Source: Methanopyrus kandleri AV19 (GTDB lineage: Archaea > JAADCQ01 > Methanopyri > Methanopyrales > Methanopyraceae). Taken from it: DNA of 32,000 bases. Numbering within the stretch: position 1 is the first letter of the stretch; the number at the start of each line of letters is the position of its first letter. Below, piece after piece: positions 2,432-32,000 of this stretch. The notes below the pieces were generated by a model, which saw only the letters and a list, made by a program, of their open reading frames with translations, did no database searches and was not told the DNA's origin. Both the position numbers and the translations under genes were made by a program. The DNA is taken from assembly GCF_000007185.1 (NCBI RefSeq), contig NC_003551.1, forward strand, positions 150,001-182,000, written 5' to 3'.

Positions 2432-3412
2432 TCATATCTCGTAGACTGCTTCCGCTACCCCGTACAGCTTGAGTACGTGCTCCTCGGCCACGAGGATCGT
2501 CTTCACGCTCTCCTTGGCGATACTCTCCAGGTCCTCCCGATCGAACTCCTCCGCTCCCAGGATCAGGGTGAGATCGCGCCCGTCACCCTCGAACTTCGGC
2601 ACGAGATCCGAGTCGTCGTCACCGACCGTACGCAAGCTGGGCTCGTTTCGGACCCATTCCACGAGCCGGATGGCCGCGTTCAAGACTTCGGAGACACGTT
2701 CAGAATCCTTCACGACGATCCCCACGGTACTGTGTTTACGAATACCGAGCAACGCCTCACGCTGGTCTTCGTCGGGTCTGAAATCGTAAGGTTCCACACC
2801 GGCGGCTTCCACGACAGCCTCCGCGGCCTTCACGGGGTCCTCAGAGGACGTGATGTACCCGCCCACGATCACCAAGTCCACACCATCCAGCTCCTCTATC
2901 TTCCTCGGGGTAAGACCACCTGCGACCGCAGTTCTCGCGGGACACCGGTCGACCCCGAACTTGTGGAGTAGCTCTTCCCCCGTGATCGGCTCGTCGATGG
3001 CCGCGTGGAGCAGGAGGTAGTCCGGGAATTCCTCAAGTCCCTTCAACTTCGACAGGACGTCTACGGGATTGACGCCGATAGTGTCCACTAATGCCCCGGC
3101 GCAGAGCTCATGTGCCCTGGTGACGAACGATCGAATCGTCTCCTCGGGCGCCGCACCCAGCACGCATCCCAGGTTCGCCCCGTGTTTAATCGATAGCTCC
3201 GCCTCCAGTGCCCCCACGTCCATCGTTTTCGTGTCGGCGACTATGGGACGCTCCGGAAACTCCTCGGCCAACCGCTCGATCGCCCGCGATCCTTCGGCCT
3301 TGATGAGCGGTGTTCCGACCTCAAGTACGTGGATTCCGGCCTCCACGCTCGCTTCGGCTATTTCGATGGCTTTGGGCAGGGATGTAAGATCCAACGCTAC
3401 CTGTGTAAGCAT
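2432..3412 (-). CDS. 3-hexulose-6-phosphate synthase-like (OMP-decarboxylase fold) protein with an unassigned ~115-aa C-terminal domain
   Basis: N-terminal ~210 aa show [27 protein letters not shown] and [10 protein letters not shown], typical of HPS/KGPDC enzymes. The C-terminal third matches nothing I recognise. Confidence 0.7.
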
Positions 3413-4548
3413 CCGCTGTCCCCCGCCACCTCTGTGAGGACGGCTTCGAACTCCTCCGGACTCGCGTCGGTTTTCACAACGGCTCTCTTTGAATAGTGTG
3501 GACGCACCGCGTTGAATCCCTCCTCACGGAGCCCCTCAAGTACCGAGGTCAGACTCGGCACCCTGGATAAGCCCAACCTCGACGCCCATCGGTGGATATC
3601 GTAAGCCCAAGGATTCGTCCCGGTCTCCTTCGCCACAGTCTCCAGGAGTTCCGCAGCCTCTTCGAGCCCGAGTTCGCGGGCGTCCGAAGCCGCACGTTCG
3701 GCCCGCTCCCGGTCCGCGAAGTCGGGCAACCACAGGGGTCCCAACCTTACTACGCTCCCTGACCCGCAGCGCGGGCACTCACGATCGAACTCGCGCTCCG
3801 AAGTGTACCCACACTCGCGACAGTGCAGAAGGTAACCGAGCCGTTTTAACGCCCGATCGGCTCGGCGGGCTCCTCTTCGGATCTCGCCGATTACGCGCAC
3901 ATGATGACGCTGGAAGAACGCGATATGTGGTTCGAACGCGAGGTCGTACTTCGCACACGTTCGGACGATGTACGAAATCAGCGCGCGGATGGCCACTTCC
4001 TGGTAGAACTCGACGCGCTCAACCTCGACCCAATACTTCCTCCGGGCCGAGCGCGGGTAACGCCCTGCGAGGGCCGAGACGTCGGTGGCGGAGATCCCGA
4101 CCACGCCACGGTTCCGGACCGTTCTAACGGCGGCATCCAAGAACGGGACCGGAGGCCCGAACGGATCGATGTCGACGTAATCGAAACGACCTGCCAGCTC
4201 ATCTTCGTGCATCAAGGCGTTCGCATCACGGTTCTCGATCCTGCAGACGTCCTCGACGTCGTTCAACCGGACGTTCTCCTCGATCAGCTCGACCGCGCGG
4301 GGATTGAGATCGTTGAGGACGACCACCTCAGGACTCAACTCGACGGCGATGCGGATCCCGCGAGCGCCTACTCCCGCCAGCGGATCACACACGATCTTCG
4401 GGCCGTATTGCACCAGCGAGGATACCGTTAAATCGCGGCTCAGTTGCATTGCGGGGTTGTAGAACACTGGGTCTCTGGCGGAGGGCTGCCCGCGGGTCTT
4501 CGGGACTTTCAGCGGCGTGCGGCCCTCGGTGATTATCTCAAGCTCCAT
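3397..4548 (-). CDS. trm1: tRNA (guanine26-N2)-dimethyltransferase Trm1
   Basis: Motifs VFYNPAMQLSRD, DPLAGVGARGIR, DIDPFGPPVPF and ATD, plus a Cys cluster CRECG...CPRCG. The 3' end overlaps the HPS-like gene start by 16 nt. Confidence 0.9.
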   Translation of the reverse strand: MELEIITEGRTPLKVPKTRGQPSARDPVFYNPAMQLSRDLTVSSLVQYGPKIVCDPLAGVGARGIRIAVELSPEVVVLNDLNPRAVELIEENVRLNDVEDVCRIENRDANALMHEDELAGRFDYVDIDPFGPPVPFLDAAVRTVRNRGVVGISATDVSALAGRYPRSARRKYWVEVERVEFYQEVAIRALISYIVRTCAKYDLAFEPHIAFFQRHHVRVIGEIRRGARRADRALKRLGYLLHCRECGYTSEREFDRECPRCGSGSVVRLGPLWLPDFADRERAERAASDARELGLEEAAELLETVAKETGTNPWAYDIHRWASRLGLSRVPSLTSVLEGLREEGFNAVRPHYSKRAVVKTDASPEEFEAVLTEVAGDSGCLHR

Positions 4549-11508: not shown

Positions 11509-12162
11509 TCACCTCTTCACCCTAATCACGGGAGTCTCGCCGGCCTTTACACTGTCCCCTTTACGTACGAGTAGCTCCTCCACGCTACTTCGGGGGACAG
11601 CCAGGTCGACCCTTGACCCGAATCGGATCATGCCGATCGGTTCCCCCTTGTTCACCTCGTCTCCCTCCTGTACGTACAGGTCGATCCTGCGCGCGACCGC
11701 TCCCGATACTAAACGGACGACGAACGGGGGGTCGCCGTCGAACAGCAACACCGCCCGGTTGTTCTCGGTGGCCGAATCTTTCCGGAAAGCCGGACGGAAC
11801 CGTCCTTTTAAAATCTCGGCCTCCACGACCCGCCCGTCCAGCGGGGCGCGGTTCACGTGCACGTCGAGCGGCGACATGAACACGGACACCGTTATCGGGT
11901 CGTCTAGGTACGAGCTCAACTCGTCGTCGGATGCCTCCCCGGCTTCCATCACGTAACCCAGCAGTCTACCGTCCGCGGGTGATACCGCGAGGGAAGGGTC
12001 CGAAGGAGGTTCACGCGGAGGGTTACGGAAGAAGAACGCCAGGAACGCCGCGGTTCCGAGGCAGAGGAAGGATAAGGGGCGAGACCATGGGAACAGTGCT
12101 GCGCCGAGGGCCGCCGGTGGTGTTACGAACTTCCACCATCCAGGCGCCATCAAATCGCTCAC
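11509..12162 (-). CDS. psd: Archaetidyl/phosphatidylserine decarboxylase-related proenzyme
   Basis: Short PSD family: SVFMSPLDVHVNRAPLDG, RLVSGAVARRI, and a self-cleavage type FGSRVDL motif. Confidence 0.85.
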   Translation of the reverse strand: MSDLMAPGWWKFVTPPAALGAALFPWSRPLSFLCLGTAAFLAFFFRNPPREPPSDPSLAVSPADGRLLGYVMEAGEASDDELSSYLDDPITVSVFMSPLDVHVNRAPLDGRVVEAEILKGRFRPAFRKDSATENNRAVLLFDGDPPFVVRLVSGAVARRIDLYVQEGDEVNKGEPIGMIRFGSRVDLAVPRSSVEELLVRKGDSVKAGETPVIRVKR

Positions 12163-12707
12163 ACCCGCTCACAGACGAACACGAACCCGGGGACGATGTG
12201 TACCCACTTCAGGTACTTTTCCAGCACGCGGAGTGGAACCTCGTGATGGAGTAATTTAGTGAAGTATCCGGGCCAGTGCGTCAGCTGCACGAACCTGCCT
12301 GAAGTCTTAAGAACTGTCGCGCAGGATCGGAGGAACTCGAGGGGCTCGGGCACGGTTTTGACGGGGACCGTCGACAGTACGGCGTCGACGTTATCCACGA
12401 GCTCCGGTAGCTCGCGTGCGTCCGCGACCACGAACTCGATGGAGTCTTCCACCCCGTACTCCTCCGCGTTCCTCCGGGCCATGTCGATCATCTCGGGATC
12501 GACGTCGACGGCCAGCACTTCACACCCCATCTCCGCCGCCGCAATGGCGACGACTCCGTTCCCGGTACCCGCGTCCACCACGAAATCTCCTTCCTCCACC
12601 CCGGCCGCCCGAACCATGAACTCGGCGGTTTCCCTGCGGGTAGGGGCCGGCGCGCCCACTCGGAGCGGTTCGCGGAGTGCCTTTCTGACGAACGCCCATA
12701 CGCTCAT
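12159..12707 (-). CDS. Class I SAM-dependent methyltransferase, phospholipid N-methyltransferase-like
   Basis: From ATG 12707: MSVWAFVRKALREPLRVGAPAPTRRETAEFM (family-typical N-terminus), SAM motif VVDAGTGNGVVAIA, and C-terminal VPGFVFVCER. The Pro-rich extension to 12953 in the ORF track overlaps the GTPase gene and is rejected. There is a 4-nt overlap with the psd start. Confidence 0.7.
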   Translation of the reverse strand: MSVWAFVRKALREPLRVGAPAPTRRETAEFMVRAAGVEEGDFVVDAGTGNGVVAIAAAEMGCEVLAVDVDPEMIDMARRNAEEYGVEDSIEFVVADARELPELVDNVDAVLSTVPVKTVPEPLEFLRSCATVLKTSGRFVQLTHWPGYFTKLLHHEVPLRVLEKYLKWVHIVPGFVFVCERV

Positions 12708-12730
12708 GGTATCCCCCCAGGGGTGGTGGT

Positions 12731-13357
12731 GTGGGAGTTCGCGAAGTCTTAAGACGCTTGGCGGCCGCTCTGAGGTCCGGACCCGAGGAGCTGGACATCG
12801 GAATATACGGGGCTCCCAACGTGGGCAAAACGACGCTGGCGAATCGCATCGCCCAGGATTGGGAGGCGGAGGAGTTCGGTCAAGTGTCGGAGGTCCCTCA
12901 CGAGACTCGGGAATCGGTGCGTCGAGAGGTAGCGATAGAGGTGGGATCAACAACGGTTAAATTCAACATCGTGGACACACCCGGCATCGCCACGAAGGTA
13001 GACTACCGTAAGTTCTTGGAGTACGGGCTTGACGTGCAAGAGGCGAAACAGAGGGCCAAAGAGGCTACTCGAGGGGTGGTGGAAGCGATCAAGCTCCTAA
13101 AGGACATCGACGGGGCGCTGGTCGTCATCGACTCCACCAAGGATCCCCTGAGTCAAGTCAACGTAACCCTGATAGGCAACCTGGAGGCCAACGACGTCCC
13201 GTTCTTGGTCGTTGCGAACAAAATAGACTTGGAGGAAGCCGACCCTGAAGCTGTCCGGAAAGCGTTCTCGGAATACCCCGTAGTCGCCGTCTCCGCGAAG
13301 ACCGGGGAGAACATGGCTAAGCTGTACGAAGCCATGGTTAGGGAGTTTACGAGTTGA
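12731..13357 (+). CDS. Small P-loop GTPase (Era/Ras-like, archaeal type)
   Basis: G1 GAPNVGKTT, G3 DTPG, G4 NKID, G5 SAK. Confidence 0.85.
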   Translation: MGVREVLRRLAAALRSGPEELDIGIYGAPNVGKTTLANRIAQDWEAEEFGQVSEVPHETRESVRREVAIEVGSTTVKFNIVDTPGIATKVDYRKFLEYGLDVQEAKQRAKEATRGVVEAIKLLKDIDGALVVIDSTKDPLSQVNVTLIGNLEANDVPFLVVANKIDLEEADPEAVRKAFSEYPVVAVSAKTGENMAKLYEAMVREFTS

Positions 13358-13716
13358 CGGACGGCGAGGTTAAAGTGGAGGTGCTAGCTAAATCGGCTTT
13401 AGAGAGGATGTCGACGGAGGAGGTCGTGGAGTACGTCATCGAAAAAACTAGGGGCGGGTCCGTGATCGTACTTGAGGGACAGTTAGACCCGGAGACGCTA
13501 ACACAGATCATCCGTGAGACTATGGAAAATGTGGATCTGGAAGAGTTCACAGGTGTGGACATCTACGTGGTACCACCGAAGGCGAAGACGGATAAAGGAC
13601 TTTTCGACAGACTGCTGGGACGCCAGTCCGAGGAGGGTATGACCGTGATCTCACCCGCGGACGTTCTGAAGGATATGAAAAAGGGGAAGGATTTCATCAC
13701 GCTAAAACTCGGATGA
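13354..13716 (+). CDS. DUF2073-like conserved archaeal protein
   Basis: VIVLEGQLDPETLTQIIRETMENVDLEEFTGVDI matches my memory of the LE.GL.PEEE..LIE.TM..ID...F.GIE signature of the archaeal family that follows this GTPase. 4-nt overlap with the GTPase gene. Confidence 0.6.
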   Translation: MTDGEVKVEVLAKSALERMSTEEVVEYVIEKTRGGSVIVLEGQLDPETLTQIIRETMENVDLEEFTGVDIYVVPPKAKTDKGLFDRLLGRQSEEGMTVISPADVLKDMKKGKDFITLKLG

Positions 13717-13729
13717 CGGGAGATCTGCT

Positions 13730-13984
13730 ATGCCTCATATATGTATAAGATGCGGCGAAGTGTACGACAAGGTTACAAAAGAACTCATACGTCGGGGTTG
13801 CTTAAAATGTGGGTGTAGACTGTTTAAGCGGGTATCTGAGGATGACGGAGATAACCCAGCAACGATCGTTGTCGAACGTGATGGCGTTTACACAATTAAC
13901 ATTGAAAACATTGACGATGTTGTAACTGTATATAAATCAGGTAGATTCTTCATAGTGCTTCCGGAGCAAAAGTACGGGGATTAG
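13730..13984 (+). CDS. Zn-ribbon protein (DUF2072-like)
   Basis: MPHICIRCGEVYDKVTKELIRRGCLKCGCRLF: a CxxC...CxxC ribbon with the family-typical MPH.C..CG N-terminus. Confidence 0.6.
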   Translation: MPHICIRCGEVYDKVTKELIRRGCLKCGCRLFKRVSEDDGDNPATIVVERDGVYTINIENIDDVVTVYKSGRFFIVLPEQKYGD

Positions 13985-13988
13985 GCAA

Positions 13989-14609
13989 TTGAAGACCACA
14001 GAAAGACCTGAACTGAGAGTTAAAATACTTAGAGCAGCTGCAGTATCTCACGAAGACATCAGTAAGGAAATGGATTCATACTGTGCAATACTAGGGGATC
14101 CAGAAAGCATTGATGATATCGTATATGAAGTGATGCGTCTATCTAATTTTGAAATTATCGACAACAGTATAGTGAAAACTAGACACGGAATAGTAGTTTG
14201 GAGGTACGGAGTTGTACTAATAAAATCGACGCCTGAGATTACTTCATTAATAAAGCGAATAGTGAGTGATACGAACCTCATGTCTGTAGTATTTAAGGCC
14301 AAGGACGGGAACTTTCTGATAGCAGGACCGGACATTGTCTTGAAAAAAATTTTGAGTAGTGCTAGAGTTAAAATGAAGGTTAAAGTGACCAAGCGTACCA
14401 GAGGTATAGCTTTCGTTGAAACTTCCACCGTGGTATTCGATGCGATGCCTGGATTCTTAAAAGACATAATTAACACGCTTCTCGGCATAGAAGAGGAAGT
14501 ATTCAGTATTTTGGTCCTAGACGTTGAAGATCCTGAAAAGTTTAAGAAGATCATCGATAAAGGACCGAATGTATATTGGAGGAGAATTGAAGAAGATAAA
14601 GAGACGTAG
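13989..14609 (+). CDS. Hypothetical protein, AT-rich gene (possibly two Roadblock/LC7-like halves; speculative)
   Basis: 206-aa ORF with a TTG start, packed tightly between the Zn-ribbon gene and mreB. No motif recognised with confidence. Confidence 0.5.
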   Translation: MKTTERPELRVKILRAAAVSHEDISKEMDSYCAILGDPESIDDIVYEVMRLSNFEIIDNSIVKTRHGIVVWRYGVVLIKSTPEITSLIKRIVSDTNLMSVVFKAKDGNFLIAGPDIVLKKILSSARVKMKVKVTKRTRGIAFVETSTVVFDAMPGFLKDIINTLLGIEEEVFSILVLDVEDPEKFKKIIDKGPNVYWRRIEEDKET

Positions 14610-14624
14610 AGGGGTTGTAAGCGC

Positions 14625-15806
14625 TTGCCATTGTGGAAGAGAAAGAAAAAAGAGGAGACAAAGCAAGAGAAAAAGATTGAAGAAGAGAAGAAGGAGAATA
14701 ATGAAAAGAAAGCTTCTAAACTACCAACATCTATTCAAGAGGCACTTAGTGAAGAGCCCGAAATAGAGATAGATGAAGGGCTCGAAGCACTTGGTATAGA
14801 TTTAGGCACCATGAACACAGTGGTTGCGAGGCCGGCCGAGGAGGAGTTTTTGGTGAAGCAATTTCCGTCTGTAGTAGCCGTGAAGAAGGGTACGAATCGA
14901 GTTTTGGCTATAGGTGAAGAAGCCCGCCGAATGCTCGGACGGACTCCCGAGGACATCGTGGCCGTGCGTCCAATGCGTCACGGTGTGATCGAGTCCTTAG
15001 AGTACGCCAAGTTCATAGTTCAGTACGCGATCGAGCTCGGATCGGACAACAGTCCCGAAGAAATCGAACGCGTCGCCGTAGGAGTGCCGGGTGATGCATC
15101 CGAGGTGGAGAGAGAAGCCATCGAAGAGGCGACCTCGGACGTCGGAATGGATAAGGACAACGTGATCGTGATCAACGAAGCCCTAGCGGCCGCCATCGGA
15201 GCCGGACTGCCGATCGCGGAGCCGGACGGTACTATGGTGATCGACATCGGAGCGGGTTCCACCGATATCGCCGTTATATCGTTGGGTGGAATCACCGACC
15301 AGGAGACCATGAGGGTCGGTGGGGACAACATCGACCAGAACATCGTCGATCTCGTGGAGGAGGAGTTCGGGGTGCGGATCGGCATCCACGAAGCCGAGCG
15401 GGCGAAAGTGGAGGTAGGTAAAGTCTTCACTGAGACCGAGGACATCGAGGACAAGGAGATCGAAGTGGTAGGCAAGGACATCGAAACGAACAAGCCCAAG
15501 GAGATCACTATCGACTCCGAGCTGGTGGCTAAAGCCGCGGAGCCCGTCGTCCAAGAGATCATCAGGGCCATCGAGAGTATCCTCGACAGGTTGCCGCCGG
15601 AGTTGGTCCCGGGCGTGTACGAGAACACCGTGCTCGTCGGAGGTACCTCACTAATGCGAGGCCTCCGAGCTAGGATCGAAGAGGAAACCGACGTACCGGC
15701 CGAGCTCGTAGACGATCCCCTGACGGTAGTAGCGAAGGGTGCCGCGATCGTAGCCGCGGAGCCGAAGACCTTGGAGCCCGAGATAAGACTCAAGGCTCTG
15801 AAGTGA
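14625..15806 (+). CDS. mreB: Actin-like rod-shape protein MreB with ~54-aa K/E-rich N-terminal extension
   Basis: GIDLGTMNTVV (phosphate 1), VAVGVPG, INEALAAAIGAG, MVIDIGAGSTDIAVISLGG (phosphate 2), GGDNIDQ, VLVGGTSLMRGL. The only in-frame starts upstream of the core are TTG 14625 and 14631. Confidence 0.9.
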   Translation: MPLWKRKKKEETKQEKKIEEEKKENNEKKASKLPTSIQEALSEEPEIEIDEGLEALGIDLGTMNTVVARPAEEEFLVKQFPSVVAVKKGTNRVLAIGEEARRMLGRTPEDIVAVRPMRHGVIESLEYAKFIVQYAIELGSDNSPEEIERVAVGVPGDASEVEREAIEEATSDVGMDKDNVIVINEALAAAIGAGLPIAEPDGTMVIDIGAGSTDIAVISLGGITDQETMRVGGDNIDQNIVDLVEEEFGVRIGIHEAERAKVEVGKVFTETEDIEDKEIEVVGKDIETNKPKEITIDSELVAKAAEPVVQEIIRAIESILDRLPPELVPGVYENTVLVGGTSLMRGLRARIEEETDVPAELVDDPLTVVAKGAAIVAAEPKTLEPEIRLKALK

Positions 15807-16744: not shown

Positions 16745-17686
16745 GTGGAGATACACGGCAGGGTCGCGAGGAAGGTGCAGGAGTGGAAACCGTTCGTGTG
16801 CCCTGATATCCGCGCGGCCCGCGAGTTCACGCGAGAGATCGTGGCCAAGGCTAAAGCCGACTTCTTAGCGGAGCGAGCCGGAGGATCCGAAGCGCTGGAC
16901 CTGTGCGCGGGACCCGGCGGAGACACGTTGGCCTTAGCGGAGCACTACGACGTGAAAGCCGTGGACCGTGAGGTACCTCGGATCGAGGCGCTGAAGATCA
17001 ACGCTCGGCTCCACGCGGGGCACGCCGTTGAAGTTATCGAGCTAGACGTCATGGAAGCCGAGCTTGATGCGGACGTCGTCCACGCGGATCCGGGCAGATC
17101 CGGCGCCAAGGACCCGAAGCGTACCGAGCCCCCCGCGACGGAACTACGAGACATGTTCTCAGAAGTCCCACACATGATCGAAGTGCCACCAGCCGTGAAA
17201 CCGAGACCGGGAACCGTAGTCTTCAGTGCGACGGGTGAGGTCCGTTCAGTCTGCTGGACCAACCTGACCGAAAAAGTCGCAGCCGTGATCGCGGAGACAT
17301 CAGCTGTTCTCGAAGGCCTTCCACGGAAGCCCACGGAAGCGTTGGAACCCGAAGAGGTGCGCTACGTTATCGAGCAGGATCCCGCCGTCCGTAAAGCGAA
17401 CCTTTCGTGGAAGCTCGCCGAGGAGCTCAACGTTCATCCGACAGTCGTCGCCGGTGAGGAGACAGTGTTGGCGTCGGAAGATCCACCGGACTTAACAGTC
17501 GATCACGTGATCAGGGTAGTGGAAGTCGGAGAAGAGGGCGACGGTCCGCCTACGATACGGTCTCTCGGTGTCAAACTGAACCCAAGACGGTTAGCAGAGT
17601 TGCGCAAAACGTACAAGGAGTACGACATCGTGTACGTAACGAAGGCCGGTGTCCTGGCCGGAAAAGTGATCTACGAAAGGGAGTGA
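16745..17686 (+). CDS. Class I SAM-dependent methyltransferase (nucleic-acid MTase-like); the true start is probably upstream
   Basis: SAM motif LDLCAGPGGDTLALA and VVHADPGR. Coordinates use the first canonical start (GTG 16745). The frame is open from 16460 and encodes protein-like sequence (see findings). Confidence 0.7.
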   Translation: MEIHGRVARKVQEWKPFVCPDIRAAREFTREIVAKAKADFLAERAGGSEALDLCAGPGGDTLALAEHYDVKAVDREVPRIEALKINARLHAGHAVEVIELDVMEAELDADVVHADPGRSGAKDPKRTEPPATELRDMFSEVPHMIEVPPAVKPRPGTVVFSATGEVRSVCWTNLTEKVAAVIAETSAVLEGLPRKPTEALEPEEVRYVIEQDPAVRKANLSWKLAEELNVHPTVVAGEETVLASEDPPDLTVDHVIRVVEVGEEGDGPPTIRSLGVKLNPRRLAELRKTYKEYDIVYVTKAGVLAGKVIYERE

Positions 17687-22301: not shown

Positions 22302-22377
22302 AGGGCCGTGGGGTAGCGGTCTATCCTGCGGGGCTTTGGACCCCGCGACCCCGGTTCAAATCCGGGCGGCCCTACCA
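22302..22377 (+). tRNA. tRNA-Gln (anticodon UUG), CCA encoded
   Basis: Manual fold. Acceptor AGGGCCG/CGGCCCU (A1-U72, as in archaeal tRNA-Gln). Anticodon stem CGGGG/CCCCG with loop CUUUGGA. T arm CCCGG-UUCAAAU-CCGGG. Discriminator A plus CCA. Confidence 0.85.
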
Positions 22378-22420: not shown

Positions 22421-22690
22421 TTGGACGCGCTGCTGAAGATCTGCATACTGAATGCGCTGGCGGTGGTAGCTTTCGCCGTACTCGTCTGGGCGGCTTTTAG
22501 GTACGCACTTCCCTCCTGGTTCATCCTGGCGATTATCGTCCCAGGGGTTCTCGGGTCAGCGTGCGTTGACTACGTCATGATCAGCGTCGGTGTGTACGAT
22601 GGCCCGTGGGAAACGGCATTCGCGAGCGTTGTGTACGCGGTGGCATGGTGGACAGGAAGACCCGGACCGTCCGGCCCGGGGTCCCGTTAG
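22421..22690 (+). CDS. Small hydrophobic protein (about 3 TM), hypothetical
   Basis: 89 aa. TTG start with AAGGGGA 6 nt upstream and GC-rich third positions. The last ~6 codons are complementary to the vhuU SECIS hairpin. Confidence 0.45.
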   Translation: MDALLKICILNALAVVAFAVLVWAAFRYALPSWFILAIIVPGVLGSACVDYVMISVGVYDGPWETAFASVVYAVAWWTGRPGPSGPGSR

Positions 22691-22704
22691 GGTTCCCCCG
22701 GGCC
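22673..22704 (-). promoter_or_regulatory. Archaeal-type SECIS element in the vhuU 3' UTR
   Basis: The minus-strand RNA is GGCCCGGGG-GAA-CCC-UAAC-GGG-A-CCCCGGGCC. This gives a 9-bp GC lower helix, a GAA/A asymmetric internal loop, a 3-bp upper helix and a 4-nt apical loop. It starts 19 nt after the vhuU stop. Confidence 0.8.
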
Positions 22705-22722
22705 ATCATCCGGCCGGGGCGT

Positions 22723-28460: not shown

Positions 28461-28778
28461 CTAAGCGAGCCGCTGGGATACCCGCTCGTAGAGTTCTTGG
28501 ACGCGTTCCTGAGCCTCCTCGTCTAGCTTCAACTCCGCGAGTTTTTTCGTCCGTTCCCACCCGGGGTACTTCGACGTGCCGAGCCTGCGAGACCTTCGGA
28601 GGGTGTACACCACGACCTCCACCGTACCGTCCTCGCCCTCCTCGGTGACGACCTCGTACCGACCTCCGGTGTGCACGATCCCTTGCATCTGCTTGATAAC
28701 GGCCGCCACGTCGTCCGGTAGCTCCTCCAGTTCCTCCTTCCGGGCGTACTTAGCGAGCACGTCGAACGCTTCCTCCAA
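28461..28778 (-). CDS. Hypothetical small acidic protein (105 aa)
   Basis: ATG-initiated ORF with host-like composition, divergent from rnhB. No motif recognised. Confidence 0.5.
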   Translation of the reverse strand: MEEAFDVLAKYARKEELEELPDDVAAVIKQMQGIVHTGGRYEVVTEEGEDGTVEVVVYTLRRSRRLGTSKYPGWERTKKLAELKLDEEAQERVQELYERVSQRLA

Positions 28779-28821: not shown

Positions 28822-29454
28822 ATGAGCGGTGTAATGGGTATCGATGAAGCCGGACGTGGACCCGTGTTCGGCCCTATGGTCGTGGCCGGTGTACTGGCTC
28901 CGAAGCGGGAGCTCGGCCTAGGCGCGAGAGATTCGAAGGAACTCACACGGAGTGCGCGTCGTAGACTGATCCGCGCGTTGATGTCGGACGAGCGATTAAG
29001 GGTGGACCTGAGGATAGTGTGGCCGTGGGAGATAGACGAAGAGGGCGTGGCGAAGGCGGAGTTCGAAGCTATCAGGGAGCTAGTACGCCGTGCTATGCCC
29101 GACGAGGTAATCCTGGACAAACCGGGAAACTACTCACCCGAGCGACTGCGAAGGGAGCTCGACTTGCCCGAAGGAATCAACCTAATCGCTGAAGAGAGGG
29201 CGGACGCGAAGTACGAAGTAGTTTCAGCGGCCTCGATCGTAGCCAAGACGTACCGTGACTGGATAGTAAGGCTCCTGGAGCTGGAATACGGAGAGGTCGG
29301 GTCGGGGTACCCTTCGGACCCCCGTACCGTAGATCGCCTTCGTCGGGAACTACGTCGGGGTGGTGAGTTGCTGAAGTACTTCAGACGGTCGTGGGAGACG
29401 TACAAGCGCGTTGAGAGTGAAGTGAAGCAGCGAAAGCTCGAGGACTTCTTCTGA
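28822..29454 (+). CDS. rnhB: Ribonuclease HII
   Basis: MSGVMGIDEAGRGPVFGPMVVAGV, DSKELT, AASIVAKTYRD, GSGYPSDP. The ORF-track N-terminal extension (from 28576) overlaps the opposite-strand gene and is rejected. Confidence 0.9.
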   Translation: MSGVMGIDEAGRGPVFGPMVVAGVLAPKRELGLGARDSKELTRSARRRLIRALMSDERLRVDLRIVWPWEIDEEGVAKAEFEAIRELVRRAMPDEVILDKPGNYSPERLRRELDLPEGINLIAEERADAKYEVVSAASIVAKTYRDWIVRLLELEYGEVGSGYPSDPRTVDRLRRELRRGGELLKYFRRSWETYKRVESEVKQRKLEDFF

Positions 29455-29475
29455 GCGCGCGGAGGGGGGTTAAGA

Positions 29476-30135
29476 CTGCGAATAGCAGGCCTGAGACCCG
29501 TGAGCTGCTCCGATGGCTTACCCGGTGAAGTGTGTGCGGTCCTTTGGACTCAAGGATGTCCGCTACGATGTCCATGGTGCCACAACCCGGAGACCCGCGA
29601 TCCGAACGGGGGAAAGAAGGCCGATGTCGAGACCATCTTACGGGACGTGGAGAAGTACGCCGTTTACCTGGACGCACTGATAGTGAGCGGAGGAGAACCA
29701 CTCCTGCAGCCGTGCGAGGAGCTGAAAGCGCTGGCACGTGGTGCTCGGGGCTTGGGTCTCAAGGTCGTCTTGGATACCTCCGGGTTCCCCCCGGATCGCC
29801 TCGGGAAGGTCATCTCGAGCTTCGACAGGGTAGCGCTGGACCTGAAAGCGCCTCTACGCGATGACGAGTACATGGAAGCGACTGGCGGCGGCATGACGGC
29901 TTCGGACTTCCTGAAAGCGGCCCGGATAGCACGCCGGCGATGTGACCTGGAACTGCGGATCACGGTGCATCCGTGGCTTGACGACGTGCCGAGGGTCGTG
30001 GAGGCAGTCCGGAAGGCGTCCCCCGACGTGGTGGTCGTTCAGCGATACGTCGGGGACAAGGAGGTCGGGATCGACCCCGAAGAACTCGCCGAGAAGCTCC
30101 GAGAGAGTTGTGAGAATGTCGTGGTACGGGTGTGA
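29476..30135 (+). CDS. Radical SAM enzyme of the PflA/NrdG-activase type; candidate RaSEA (archaeosine formation) by context
   Basis: The CPLRCPWCHN CX3CX2C cluster follows DGLPGEVCAVLWTQGC, and VSGGEPLL is present. Canonical GTG 29500 is possible, but an SD (GGAGGGGGGT) sits 5 nt before CTG 29476, which gives MRIAGLRPVS. Confidence 0.75.
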   Translation: MRIAGLRPVSCSDGLPGEVCAVLWTQGCPLRCPWCHNPETRDPNGGKKADVETILRDVEKYAVYLDALIVSGGEPLLQPCEELKALARGARGLGLKVVLDTSGFPPDRLGKVISSFDRVALDLKAPLRDDEYMEATGGGMTASDFLKAARIARRRCDLELRITVHPWLDDVPRVVEAVRKASPDVVVVQRYVGDKEVGIDPEELAEKLRESCENVVVRV

Positions 30136-30141
30136 TTATGT

Positions 30142-31521
30142 TTGAACGTTGCATTCGAAGTTAAGGATCGGGACGTGGCGGGCAGGCTCGGGCGTCTCGA
30201 GGTCAATGGCAGGAGACTGAAGACGCCCGCCCTGTTGCCCGTGGTTAACCCCAACAAACCCACCTTGGATCCACGGGAGATCTCCAAGCTAGGTTTCGAC
30301 GGGGTGATCACGAACGCCTACATTATCCGGAAGCACGAGCACCTACGCGAGCAGGCGCTCGAGGAAGGCGTCCATGGGCTCCTTGGGTTCGACGGGTTCG
30401 TGATGACGGATTCCGGCTCGTTCCAGCTGGCGGAGTACGGCGATGTCGAAGTATCCAACGAAGAGATCGTGCGGTTCCAAGCGAAGATCGGGTCAGATGT
30501 GGGCACTATCCTCGACGTGCCGACGCCACCCGACGCTCCGAGGTCCAGGGTCGAACGTGACCTCGAGACCACACTGAAAAGGGCTCGCGAAGCGGTGGAG
30601 CTCGACGAACACCCTCCGTTAGCTCTCACCGTCCAAGGGTCCACGTACGAGGACCTTCGGAGACTGTGCGCAGAGAAACTGGCGGAGCTGCCGGCGGCGG
30701 TGTATCCCGTGGGAGGCGTCGTACCGCTGCTGGAGGAGTACCGGTTCGTAGACGTGGTACGAGTGGTCCTAGCCGCGAAGTCCTCGCTGCCTCCACATCG
30801 CCCTGTACACCTCTTCGGTTGCGGGCATCCGCTGGCGATTCCACTCGCCGTCGCGATGGGGTGCGATCTGTTCGACTCCGCATCTTACGCTATCTACGCC
30901 AGATCGGACCGGTACATGTCCATCCTAGGTACTCTGAAGTTAGAGGAGCTGGAGACCTTCCCGTGTTCCTGCCCAGCGTGTACACGACACGATCCGGACG
31001 ACGTCCGCGAGATGGAGCCGCGAGAACGTACCCGAGTGTTGGCTACGCATAACCTCTACGAGTTGCGCAGGGTGATAGAGACCACGAGGCAGGCTATAGT
31101 GTCGGGAGAGCTATGGGAGTTGGCCGAATCGGTATGCCGAGCACATCCGCGTGCTTGGGCAGGGATGGTGGAGTTAGCGCGACGTGGAGGAGAACTGGAA
31201 CGATGGTGTCCGGCCGTAAAGCGTAGCGTGTTCGTATGCGATGAGGTCTCGAAGGGACGTCCCGAGCTACGTCTCTACCGTCGACGGCTCCGGGACAGGT
31301 TCGGCGAGCTCTCGGGGCGTAAAGTGGTGAAAGGGATAAGCAGACCCTACGCAGAGATCGTCGAGTGGTTAGAACCATGGGAGCTGGCGTTCGCCGACGA
31401 GTGGTTAGGAGTGGTACCCGGAGAACTGTCATGGTCGTACCCTTGCCACTGCCTCGTGGAGCCTAGCGGGGATGATGAGGGTGAGGACCGACGGAGGGGT
31501 GAAGAGGGTCGCAGGCGCTGA
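30142..31521 (+). CDS. tgtA: Archaeosine tRNA-guanine transglycosylase (ArcTGT), catalytic + C1 region only (no PUA)
   Basis: FEVKDRDVAGRLGRLEVNGRRLKTPALLPVVNP, MTDSGSFQ, GTILDVPTPPDAP, QGSTYEDLR, PVGGVVPLLEEYRF, HLFGCGHP, DLFDSASY, and Zn site FPCSCPAC..H. Confidence 0.85.
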   Translation: MNVAFEVKDRDVAGRLGRLEVNGRRLKTPALLPVVNPNKPTLDPREISKLGFDGVITNAYIIRKHEHLREQALEEGVHGLLGFDGFVMTDSGSFQLAEYGDVEVSNEEIVRFQAKIGSDVGTILDVPTPPDAPRSRVERDLETTLKRAREAVELDEHPPLALTVQGSTYEDLRRLCAEKLAELPAAVYPVGGVVPLLEEYRFVDVVRVVLAAKSSLPPHRPVHLFGCGHPLAIPLAVAMGCDLFDSASYAIYARSDRYMSILGTLKLEELETFPCSCPACTRHDPDDVREMEPRERTRVLATHNLYELRRVIETTRQAIVSGELWELAESVCRAHPRAWAGMVELARRGGELERWCPAVKRSVFVCDEVSKGRPELRLYRRRLRDRFGELSGRKVVKGISRPYAEIVEWLEPWELAFADEWLGVVPGELSWSYPCHCLVEPSGDDEGEDRRRGEEGRRR

Positions 31522-32000
31522 GTTCGTCCTTTATAAGGAAGGGGGATCGGAGTTTTACGTGCCGGACCCGGAACGTTACTCTCAGGATGGCCTTCCCACC
31601 CGTGATGCACCGGTAGCGTTCGCACCGAACGCCGCCGTGAACAGGTCCGTACTCGTCCTGTTCCACCGAGTACGTCCTGTGAGGAGGTTCGGAGACGTGT
31701 TCTGTGGTGTCGGCGCCAGGGCCATCCGCCTTCATATTGAAGCCGAGGTGGAGTGGTCCGTACTATCCGATGTGAACCCCATTGCGTGTCAAATCGCAAT
31801 GATCAACGTCCGGAGACTCGGACTACCATCGGAGGTTAGGTGTATGGATGCCGTCGCCGCACTTTCTACCTTCGACTTCGATGCCGTCGACTTGGACGTG
31901 TTCGGGACCCCGATACCGTTCGCCCAAGCCGCGTTTCGGTGCGTACGCGACGGTTACGTGCACGTCACCGCCACAGACCTCGAATCGCTGTATACCCCGG
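31472..32000 (+). CDS. Divergent Trm1-family methyltransferase paralogue (5' part, runs off the window)
   Basis: My translation from ATG 31472: MMRVRTDGGVKRVAGAEFVLYKEG...FAPNAAVNRS...DVFCGVGARAIR...DLDVFGTPIPF...ATDL. It is collinear with the Trm1 motifs (FYNP, DPLAGVGARGIR, DIDPFGPPVPF, ATD). It overlaps the tgtA 3' end by 50 nt. Confidence 0.7.
   Translation, partial: MMRVRTDGGVKRVAGAEFVLYKEGGSEFYVPDPERYSQDGLPTRDAPVAFAPNAAVNRSVLVLFHRVRPVRRFGDVFCGVGARAIRLHIEAEVEWSVLSDVNPIACQIAMINVRRLGLPSEVRCMDAVAALSTFDFDAVDLDVFGTPIPFAQAAFRCVRDGYVHVTATDLESLYTP

Follow-up and report, generated by a model that had tools for sequence, protein, structure and literature searches.

In the 32,000-nucleotide stretch of Methanopyrus kandleri AV19 DNA analysed here (NC_003551.1, positions 150,001 to 182,000, referred to as the window), an open reading frame (ORF) list and inspection of the letters place rnhB, a gene for a radical S-adenosylmethionine (SAM) protein, tgtA and a gene of the Trm1 family in series at the 3' end. 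Do the last three make up an archaeosine module, in which a RaSEA-like radical SAM enzyme would serve an ArcTGT devoid of a PUA domain, as a preliminary description of the region had proposed, or are they neighbours of different function? The reading favoured here, with a probability of roughly 65%, is that of a Methanopyrales-specific housekeeping operon. It would encode an activase of the NrdG type, a short ArcTGT of the ordinary kind and a methyltransferase derived from Trm1, which do not serve one pathway.

Family of the radical SAM protein

The family best matched by the radical SAM protein is NrdG2 (TIGR02495), the activase of class III ribonucleotide reductase; the match, of 121.8 bits, runs from position 2 to position 191 of the 193 positions of the model. 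PflA-type activases ranked second (77.8 bits), and QueE models reached at best 42.5 bits against cut-offs of 200–300, that of the best-scoring model being 300. The RaSEA model TIGR01210 (cut-off 212 bits) was absent from the 25 best NCBIfam matches of the protein, which extended down to E 4.9e-4. This model was validated with a genuine RaSEA fragment encoded near arcS in Haladaptatus, which scored 312.8 bits; in a single pairwise comparison, the Methanopyrus protein was 22% identical to the fragment over 93 residues (E 0.014). The order among the candidate families was thus NrdG2, PflA and QueE, with RaSEA not listed, and the proposed likeness to RaSEA was not borne out, given the end-to-end match to NrdG2, the absence of TIGR01210 from the best 25 matches and the 22% identity to RaSEA itself.

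Among solved structures, the best match was to the pyruvate formate-lyase activating enzyme (PFL-AE) 3C8F (E 2.6e-14, over PFL-AE residues 19–176); PqqE was matched weakly and no other structure was matched. No QueE chain in the PDB matched the protein at E ≤ 0.01, and a QueE identity was rejected on the model scores and these structure matches. The motifs are those of an activase, with SDGLPGE (a DGxPG loop) followed by GCPLRCPWCHN (CxxxCxxC-H-N); the cluster-motif stretch reads QGCPLRCPWCHNPE. Compared with NrdG2 and PFL-AE (3C8F/3CB8), the protein has the same size of about 220 amino acids (aa), the N-terminal DGxPG loop, the CxxxCxxC-H-N motif and the full-length match to the family model; the gene differs in lying between rnhB and tgtA, not beside nrdD, and in its probable CTG start. 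With the ArcS-RaSEA synthase (NF040592 and TIGR01210) it shares the position of a radical SAM gene near a gene of the TGT family, but RaSEA belongs to another radical SAM family (about 313 model positions), its partner is ArcS and not TgtA, and its model is not matched by the Methanopyrus protein.

The counterpart in Methanopyrus sp. SNP6 is 95% identical, and the nearest homologues outside the Methanopyrales are 31–38% identical. These homologues directly follow an nrdD or PFL-like gene: a glycyl-radical enzyme gene was found directly upstream in all five that were checked (NRDD in four, PFL-like in one), and NrdR lies upstream in two of the four NRDD-linked loci. By family, the radical SAM protein belongs to the NrdG2 group of glycyl-radical enzyme activases, and it is most probably NrdG. 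By means of its 4Fe-4S cluster and SAM, it would most probably set the glycyl radical on a class III NrdD encoded elsewhere in the genome, a substrate suggested by the family.

The 5' end of the gene was compared among Methanopyrales, of which six lineages were found (the window, L005, L007/L013, L014, L015 and L095). No ATG, GTG or TTG precedes the conserved N-terminus RIAGLRPVSCSDG in the window (29452–29502), in L013 (5307–5380) or in L015 (5318–5400), and homology begins upstream of the first canonical start, GTG 29500. A conserved CTG is found a few nucleotides (nt) past a GGAGG-like run, and the gene probably starts there, so that gene callers shorten the protein. In the same three loci, the rnhB TGA and the radical SAM ORF share a reading frame. 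The sister clade (L005, L014 and L095) differs in that rnhB lies in another frame and the radical SAM gene starts with TTG.

TgtA and the Trm1-like protein

TgtA scored 523.9 bits on the ArcTGT model TIGR00432, for which the cut-off is 350, and was aligned to residues 9–409 of the 582 residues of the Pyrococcus horikoshii ArcTGT (1IQ8). The catalytic residues Asp95 and Asp249 of 1IQ8 are kept as D90 and D245, the Val-Val pocket for preQ0 is kept (V193/V194), and the zinc ligands C279, C281, C284 and H307 correspond to C275, C277, C280 and H303. TGT_C2 (PF14810) and PUA (PF01472) were not matched in TgtA even at E ≤ 1, Pfam detecting the TGT domain only; both domains were found in a 672-aa Methanobacterium TgtA used as the positive control. 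An acidic/basic tail, GDDEGEDRRRGEEGRRR, is present, and it is largely a shadow of the dual-coding overlap with the trm1-like gene. The preliminary description of a 459-aa ArcTGT that retains its catalytic and zinc motifs, ends in such a tail and lacks the C2 and PUA domains is thereby confirmed by the alignment and the Pfam control, and judged by its sequence the protein is a genuine ArcTGT. A DNA-modifying, DpdA-like role for a TGT encoded beside rnhB was rejected, the DpdA score being 20 bits (cut-off 200) against 524 bits as TgtA.

A scan of one genome per species gave 80 tgtA loci, 3 from Methanopyrales and 77 from other archaea, and the lengths of their tgtA ORFs fall into two classes, of about 460–530 aa and about 655–680 aa. 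The long class is found mainly in Methanobacteriales; the short class is found in Methanothrix, Methanosarcina, Methanoculleus, haloarchaea, Archaeoglobaceae and Methanopyrales. Five short proteins from four other orders gave the TGT domain only in Pfam, as did TgtA of the window. Split-type ArcTGTs are active in Haloferax and Methanosarcina, and the P. furiosus enzyme from which the PUA domain was deleted still selects G15, with a weaker affinity for tRNA (PMC4770233; PMC11298593). The PUA-less TgtA is this published split-type enzyme, which is widespread and not new. With the enzymes of Methanosarcina and Haloferax it shares the catalytic domain and C1 as its only domains, a length of about 460–500 aa, and the conserved Asp residues, Val-Val pair and zinc site. 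It differs in its surroundings, since most other short-type lineages have arcS just downstream (12 of 18 loci with enough flank), where Methanopyrus has the Trm1 paralogue, and since C2/PUA-coding sequence is absent within at least 10 kb of Methanopyrus tgtA. From the long P. horikoshii type it differs in that C2 and C3/PUA are not on the same polypeptide. By analogy with the characterised split-type enzymes, TgtA would exchange G15 of tRNA for preQ0, and completion to archaeosine would fall to a PUA-bearing ArcS and a true RaSEA, both encoded elsewhere.

As a separate observation, the 672-aa TgtA of Methanobacterium ferruginis (L021, 5995–8010) has a match to PF17884 (DUF5591) between C1 and C2, and the same Pfam domain is precomputed for ArcS proteins, as seen in a search with an Archaeoglobaceae ArcS.

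Trm1 is the tRNA (guanine26-N2)-dimethyltransferase, and a canonical member of 383 aa is encoded in the window on the minus strand (3397–4548), matching PF02005 over model positions 4–375 of 376. The Trm1-like protein encoded after tgtA is therefore a true paralogue, a second copy, as the preliminary description had it: on TIGR00308, the canonical protein scored 281.5 bits, just over the cut-off of 280.65, and the Trm1-like protein 92.8 bits, over model positions 2–233 of 375. The two are 32% identical over the methyltransferase domain. A word-indexed search of 5.8 billion proteins with the Trm1-like protein returned only Methanopyrales members and one canonical Trm1. When 1.84 billion representatives were searched exhaustively with a profile, one full-length member (519.6 bits) and one fragment (317.5 bits) were found, the best non-members being ordinary Trm1 proteins of 345–400 aa at no more than 129.6 bits.

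Full-length members have 292–305 aa. In their alignment, the SAM-binding motifs are invariant (GVGAR and D..N), the Cys-rich insert and the last ~90 residues are lost, and the catalytic D-P-F-G of Trm1 is replaced by D-V-F-G in Methanopyrus and by D-V-H-G in the other lineages. A predicted model of moderate confidence (pLDDT 63) had the Trm1 structures 2YTZ, 2EJT and 3AXS as its best Foldseek matches. Set against Trm1 of P. horikoshii (2DUL/2EJT) and Aquifex (3AXS), the protein would have the same fold (Foldseek E 2.5e-16, TM 0.64, for the predicted model) and keeps the SAM motifs GVGARxxR and SDVN and the C-terminal GPxW. It is shorter by about 90 residues, having neither the Cys-rich insert nor the last helical subdomain, has D-V-F/H-G for D-P-F-G, falls short of the family cut-off and coexists with a canonical Trm1. 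It is a real, compact, Methanopyrales-restricted Trm1 variant with an altered catalytic motif, and it is the sole unusual element of the three genes. Its fold and SAM motifs are those of a SAM-dependent methyltransferase, which would be translationally coupled to tgtA and would most probably methylate some guanine of tRNA, though not the canonical G26.

The overlap between tgtA and the trm1-like gene, noted in the preliminary description, is real, and it is kept in all six Methanopyrales lineages found. Over 55 nt (31467–31521), in which the tail of TgtA is encoded in one frame and the N-terminus of the Trm1-like protein in the +1 frame, the DNA is invariant in the window, L013 and L015; over the rest of the 3.5-kb cluster, three-way column identity is 60%, and all other invariant runs are shorter than 17 nt. 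No stable RNA fold was predicted in these 55 nt (z = +1.06), and RNA structure was rejected on this value as the cause of the conservation, which is attributed to the dual-coding constraint and to translational coupling.

The gene string and its possible readings

The arrangement of three genes that follow rnhB with junctions of +6 and −50 nt was confirmed by the ORF positions and by Pfam and NCBIfam families, the Pfam calls being PF04055/PF13353 for the radical SAM protein, PF01702 for TgtA and PF02005 for the Trm1-like protein. The radical SAM gene ends 6 nt before tgtA (stop 30135, start 30142), and the trm1-like gene, opening at ATG 31472, overlaps the end of tgtA at 31521 by 50 nt, or by 47 or 41 nt with alternative starts. 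It runs out of the window and is complete in an identical public contig (L001), in which it is called from GTG 31481, with a product of 293 aa. In this contig, a gene for an archaeal-type phosphoenolpyruvate (PEP) carboxylase (ppcA) lies 34 nt 3' of it. The region is best explained as the 3' part of a conserved string of five genes of which rnhB is the first, one that is packed and would be functionally mixed. The features are collected in Table 1.

Table 1. Positions of the genes and of the coding overlap in the window.
Feature	Position	Strand	Remarks
rnhB (RNase HII)	28822..29454	+	PF01351 125 bits; TIGR00729 171 bits (cut-off 123.3)
Radical SAM activase, NrdG2/PflA type	29476..30135	+	TIGR02495 121.8 bits; probable start CTG 29476, first canonical start GTG 29500
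tgtA, short ArcTGT, 459 aa	30142..31521	+	TTG start; TIGR00432 523.9 bits; TIM barrel, zinc subdomain and C1
trm1-like, 5' part	31472..32000	+	PF02005; about 360 nt further past the window end; full length 293–296 aa
Dual-coding overlap of tgtA tail and trm1-like N-terminus (+1 frame)	31467..31521	+	Longest invariant DNA run of the cluster
Canonical full-length trm1	3397..4548	-	PF02005 293.8 bits; TIGR00308 281.5 bits

The order rnhB, radical SAM gene, tgtA (458–466 aa), trm1-like gene and ppcA is kept in the six Methanopyrales lineages, for ppcA where the contig reaches it. The gap between rnhB and the radical SAM gene is 21 nt. Between the radical SAM gene and tgtA there is either a gap of 6 nt or, in L005 and L095, an overlap of 17 nt; ppcA begins 34 nt past the trm1-like gene or, in L095, overlaps it by 4 nt. 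RNase HII and PEP carboxylase have no part in archaeosine formation. Spacing does not define a module, because equally tight junctions reach rnhB and ppcA, and the archaeosine module drawn from the tight junctions is not supported, the same spacing binding two genes unrelated to that pathway. Among the 80 loci, only the 3 from Methanopyrales have the radical SAM gene, rnhB or the trm1-like gene as neighbours of tgtA; neither a homologue of the radical SAM gene nor the trm1-like gene was found within 6 kb of tgtA in any of the 77 others, where the one other radical SAM ORF at that distance is unrelated and of the SPASM type (L081, Methanosarcina).

A 105-aa ORF without a Pfam match is present on the minus strand at 28461–28778, divergent from rnhB. 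ORFs of 105–112 aa on the same strand occupy this slot in L005, L007 and L095, matched by size and position only.

In the scan of tgtA loci, arcS was found just downstream of short tgtA genes in 12 of the 18 loci whose sequence extends 2.5 kb or more past the gene, and downstream of long tgtA genes in 0 of 34. In 4 of the 12, it overlaps the short tgtA by 22–43 nt (L050, L066, L077 and L089 are among the loci). The tgtA-linked arcS genes encode C2/PUA-bearing proteins of about 580 aa, scoring 595–848 bits on NF040592. The arrangement suggests a functional tie between short TgtA and ArcS. A stretch of about 7 kb in Haladaptatus halobius (L070, 6001–13087) carries a short tgtA, arcS (847.9 bits) and a RaSEA gene cut by the end of the locus (TIGR01210, 312.8 bits), and is a genuine archaeosine neighbourhood.

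For Methanopyrus, four NrdD, one PFL-like and four ArcS sequences and the RaSEA fragment were searched by tblastn against about 178 kb of partly redundant Methanopyrales DNA, comprising the window and the flanks of the other loci; the sole match was due to paralogy with tgtA. No ArcS-like or C2/PUA-like sequence was found in the window or in these flanks, the ArcS queries matching tgtA only. A protein search with an Archaeoglobaceae ArcS returned almost only Archaeoglobi and no Methanopyrus, and is uninformative for Methanopyrus. The PAB0082 family, of PUA-bearing TgtA paralogues, is now known as ArcS. It occurs, according to a survey that covered M. kandleri AV19 among other genomes (PMC1852104), in every sequenced member of the Euryarchaeota, and ArcS is on this account probably encoded elsewhere in the Methanopyrus genome.

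Several points weigh against the reading as a mixed housekeeping operon. The NrdG2 score lies 9 bits under the curated cut-off of 131.15. The tblastn search revealed no nrdD or other glycyl-radical enzyme gene, either in the 32 kb of the window or in the DNA flanking the other Methanopyrales loci, and a literature search found no mention of a Methanopyrus ribonucleotide reductase or of its glycyl-radical enzymes. The adjacency of the radical SAM gene and tgtA has survived a drop in identity of the radical SAM protein to 56–59% among the lineages and a different upstream context in one clade (L005), which is more than nothing, though within one order. Finally, because arcS usually follows tgtA in other lineages with a short TgtA, the conserved overlap between tgtA and the trm1-like gene could mark a functional pair and not plain packing.

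Such a pair, in which the Trm1-like protein would give the PUA-less TgtA its grip on tRNA or would methylate a nearby guanine of the D-arm or core while the radical SAM protein is an unrelated NrdG, is regarded as a reasonable rival, though rather unlikely. The overlap is kept in all six lineages and surpasses all other DNA of the cluster in conservation, the trm1-like gene was never found apart from tgtA, the tRNA-binding ArcS takes the same downstream slot in 12 of 18 short loci with enough flank and none of the 34 long ones, and D-V-F/H-G stands in place of the catalytic D-P-F-G, the SAM motifs being invariant. All of this comes from a single order, however, in which adjacency may be inherited; the trm1-like gene also overlaps ppcA in L095, and dual coding by itself accounts for the conservation of the sequence. 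Moreover, split-type and PUA-deleted ArcTGTs are active (PMC4770233), and the ArcTGT of T. kodakarensis does not bind ArcS, so that adjacency need not mean a complex (PMC11298593). A bolder form, in which the Trm1-like protein, encoded in the slot that arcS holds in other short-TgtA lineages, works with TgtA by holding the tRNA or as a new methyltransferase for guanine or 7-deazaguanine, and in its strongest version the radical SAM protein also acts on this tRNA pathway and not on NrdD, is considered distinctly unlikely.

Recruitment of the radical SAM protein to 7-deazaguanine chemistry, in which it would replace QueE without being orthologous to it, or play the part of RaSEA alongside TgtA, the Trm1-like protein or both, is the preliminary proposal taken most broadly. 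Such recruitment would be in keeping with the place of the gene directly upstream of tgtA in all Methanopyrales lineages (by a 6-nt gap or a 17-nt overlap), with an NrdG2 score slightly under the cut-off and with the lack of a glycyl-radical enzyme gene in the ~178 kb. It is judged improbable all the same, in view of the full-model NrdG2 match with its DGxPG loop and CxxxCxxC-H-N motif, QueE scores of at most 42.5 bits against cut-offs of 200–300 with no QueE structure matched, and a RaSEA family (TIGR01210) that is a different one of about 313 residues. The five outside homologues checked are all partnered with glycyl-radical enzymes, no homologue of the gene lies within 6 kb of tgtA in the 77 other loci, and M. 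kandleri is reported to have an ArcS homologue (PMC1852104). Fusion of products by recoding, either through a +1 frameshift at the tgtA stop codon (TgtA with the Trm1-like protein) or through read-through of the rnhB TGA (RNase HII with the radical SAM protein), is least credible of all, and these fusions were set aside. Trm1 homology does start, in the +1 frame, directly past the stop codon of tgtA, the 55 nt of the junction do not vary, and in the window, L013 and L015 the rnhB TGA lies in the radical SAM frame with no canonical start before the conserved N-terminus. No fused ORF occurs among the Trm1-like proteins, though, whose full-length members have 292–305 aa; CGC-UGA offers no slippery codon, no RNA structure is predicted, and in the sister clade rnhB lies in a different frame and the radical SAM gene opens with TTG. 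The conserved CTG after the GGAGG-like run is a simpler account of the missing start.

Other genes of the window and significance

Elsewhere in the window, a TrmO-like gene (225–746), a gene for a UPF0020-type methyltransferase (12159–12953, minus strand) and a weak RsmB-like ORF (16745–17686) were recorded. An island of low GC content (42–51% against about 60%) extends over 13350–14800, beginning just past a small GTPase-like ORF (12731–13357); its ORFs, of 120 aa, 84 aa (with CxxC pairs) and 206 aa, have no Pfam match and lie directly upstream of an MreB-like gene (14625–15806). A tRNA gene (22302–22374, plus strand) and a match to the Rfam flpD cis-regulatory RNA (22667–22713, minus strand; 55.8 bits, gathering score 40) are found upstream of a NiFe hydrogenase pair.

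On the evidence for a ribonucleotide-reductase activase and a known short ArcTGT, the proposed new route to archaeosine falls. The case also illustrates that tight junctions in compact archaeal genomes are no evidence of shared function. The occurrence of arcS after short but not long tgtA genes leads to a concrete hypothesis on how PUA-less ArcTGTs hold tRNA. There also remains a Methanopyrales-only family of Trm1-derived methyltransferases, whose catalytic motif has changed and whose genes obligately overlap tgtA in dual-coding DNA, and its M. kandleri member is a candidate enzyme for an unassigned guanine modification of the tRNA of this organism.

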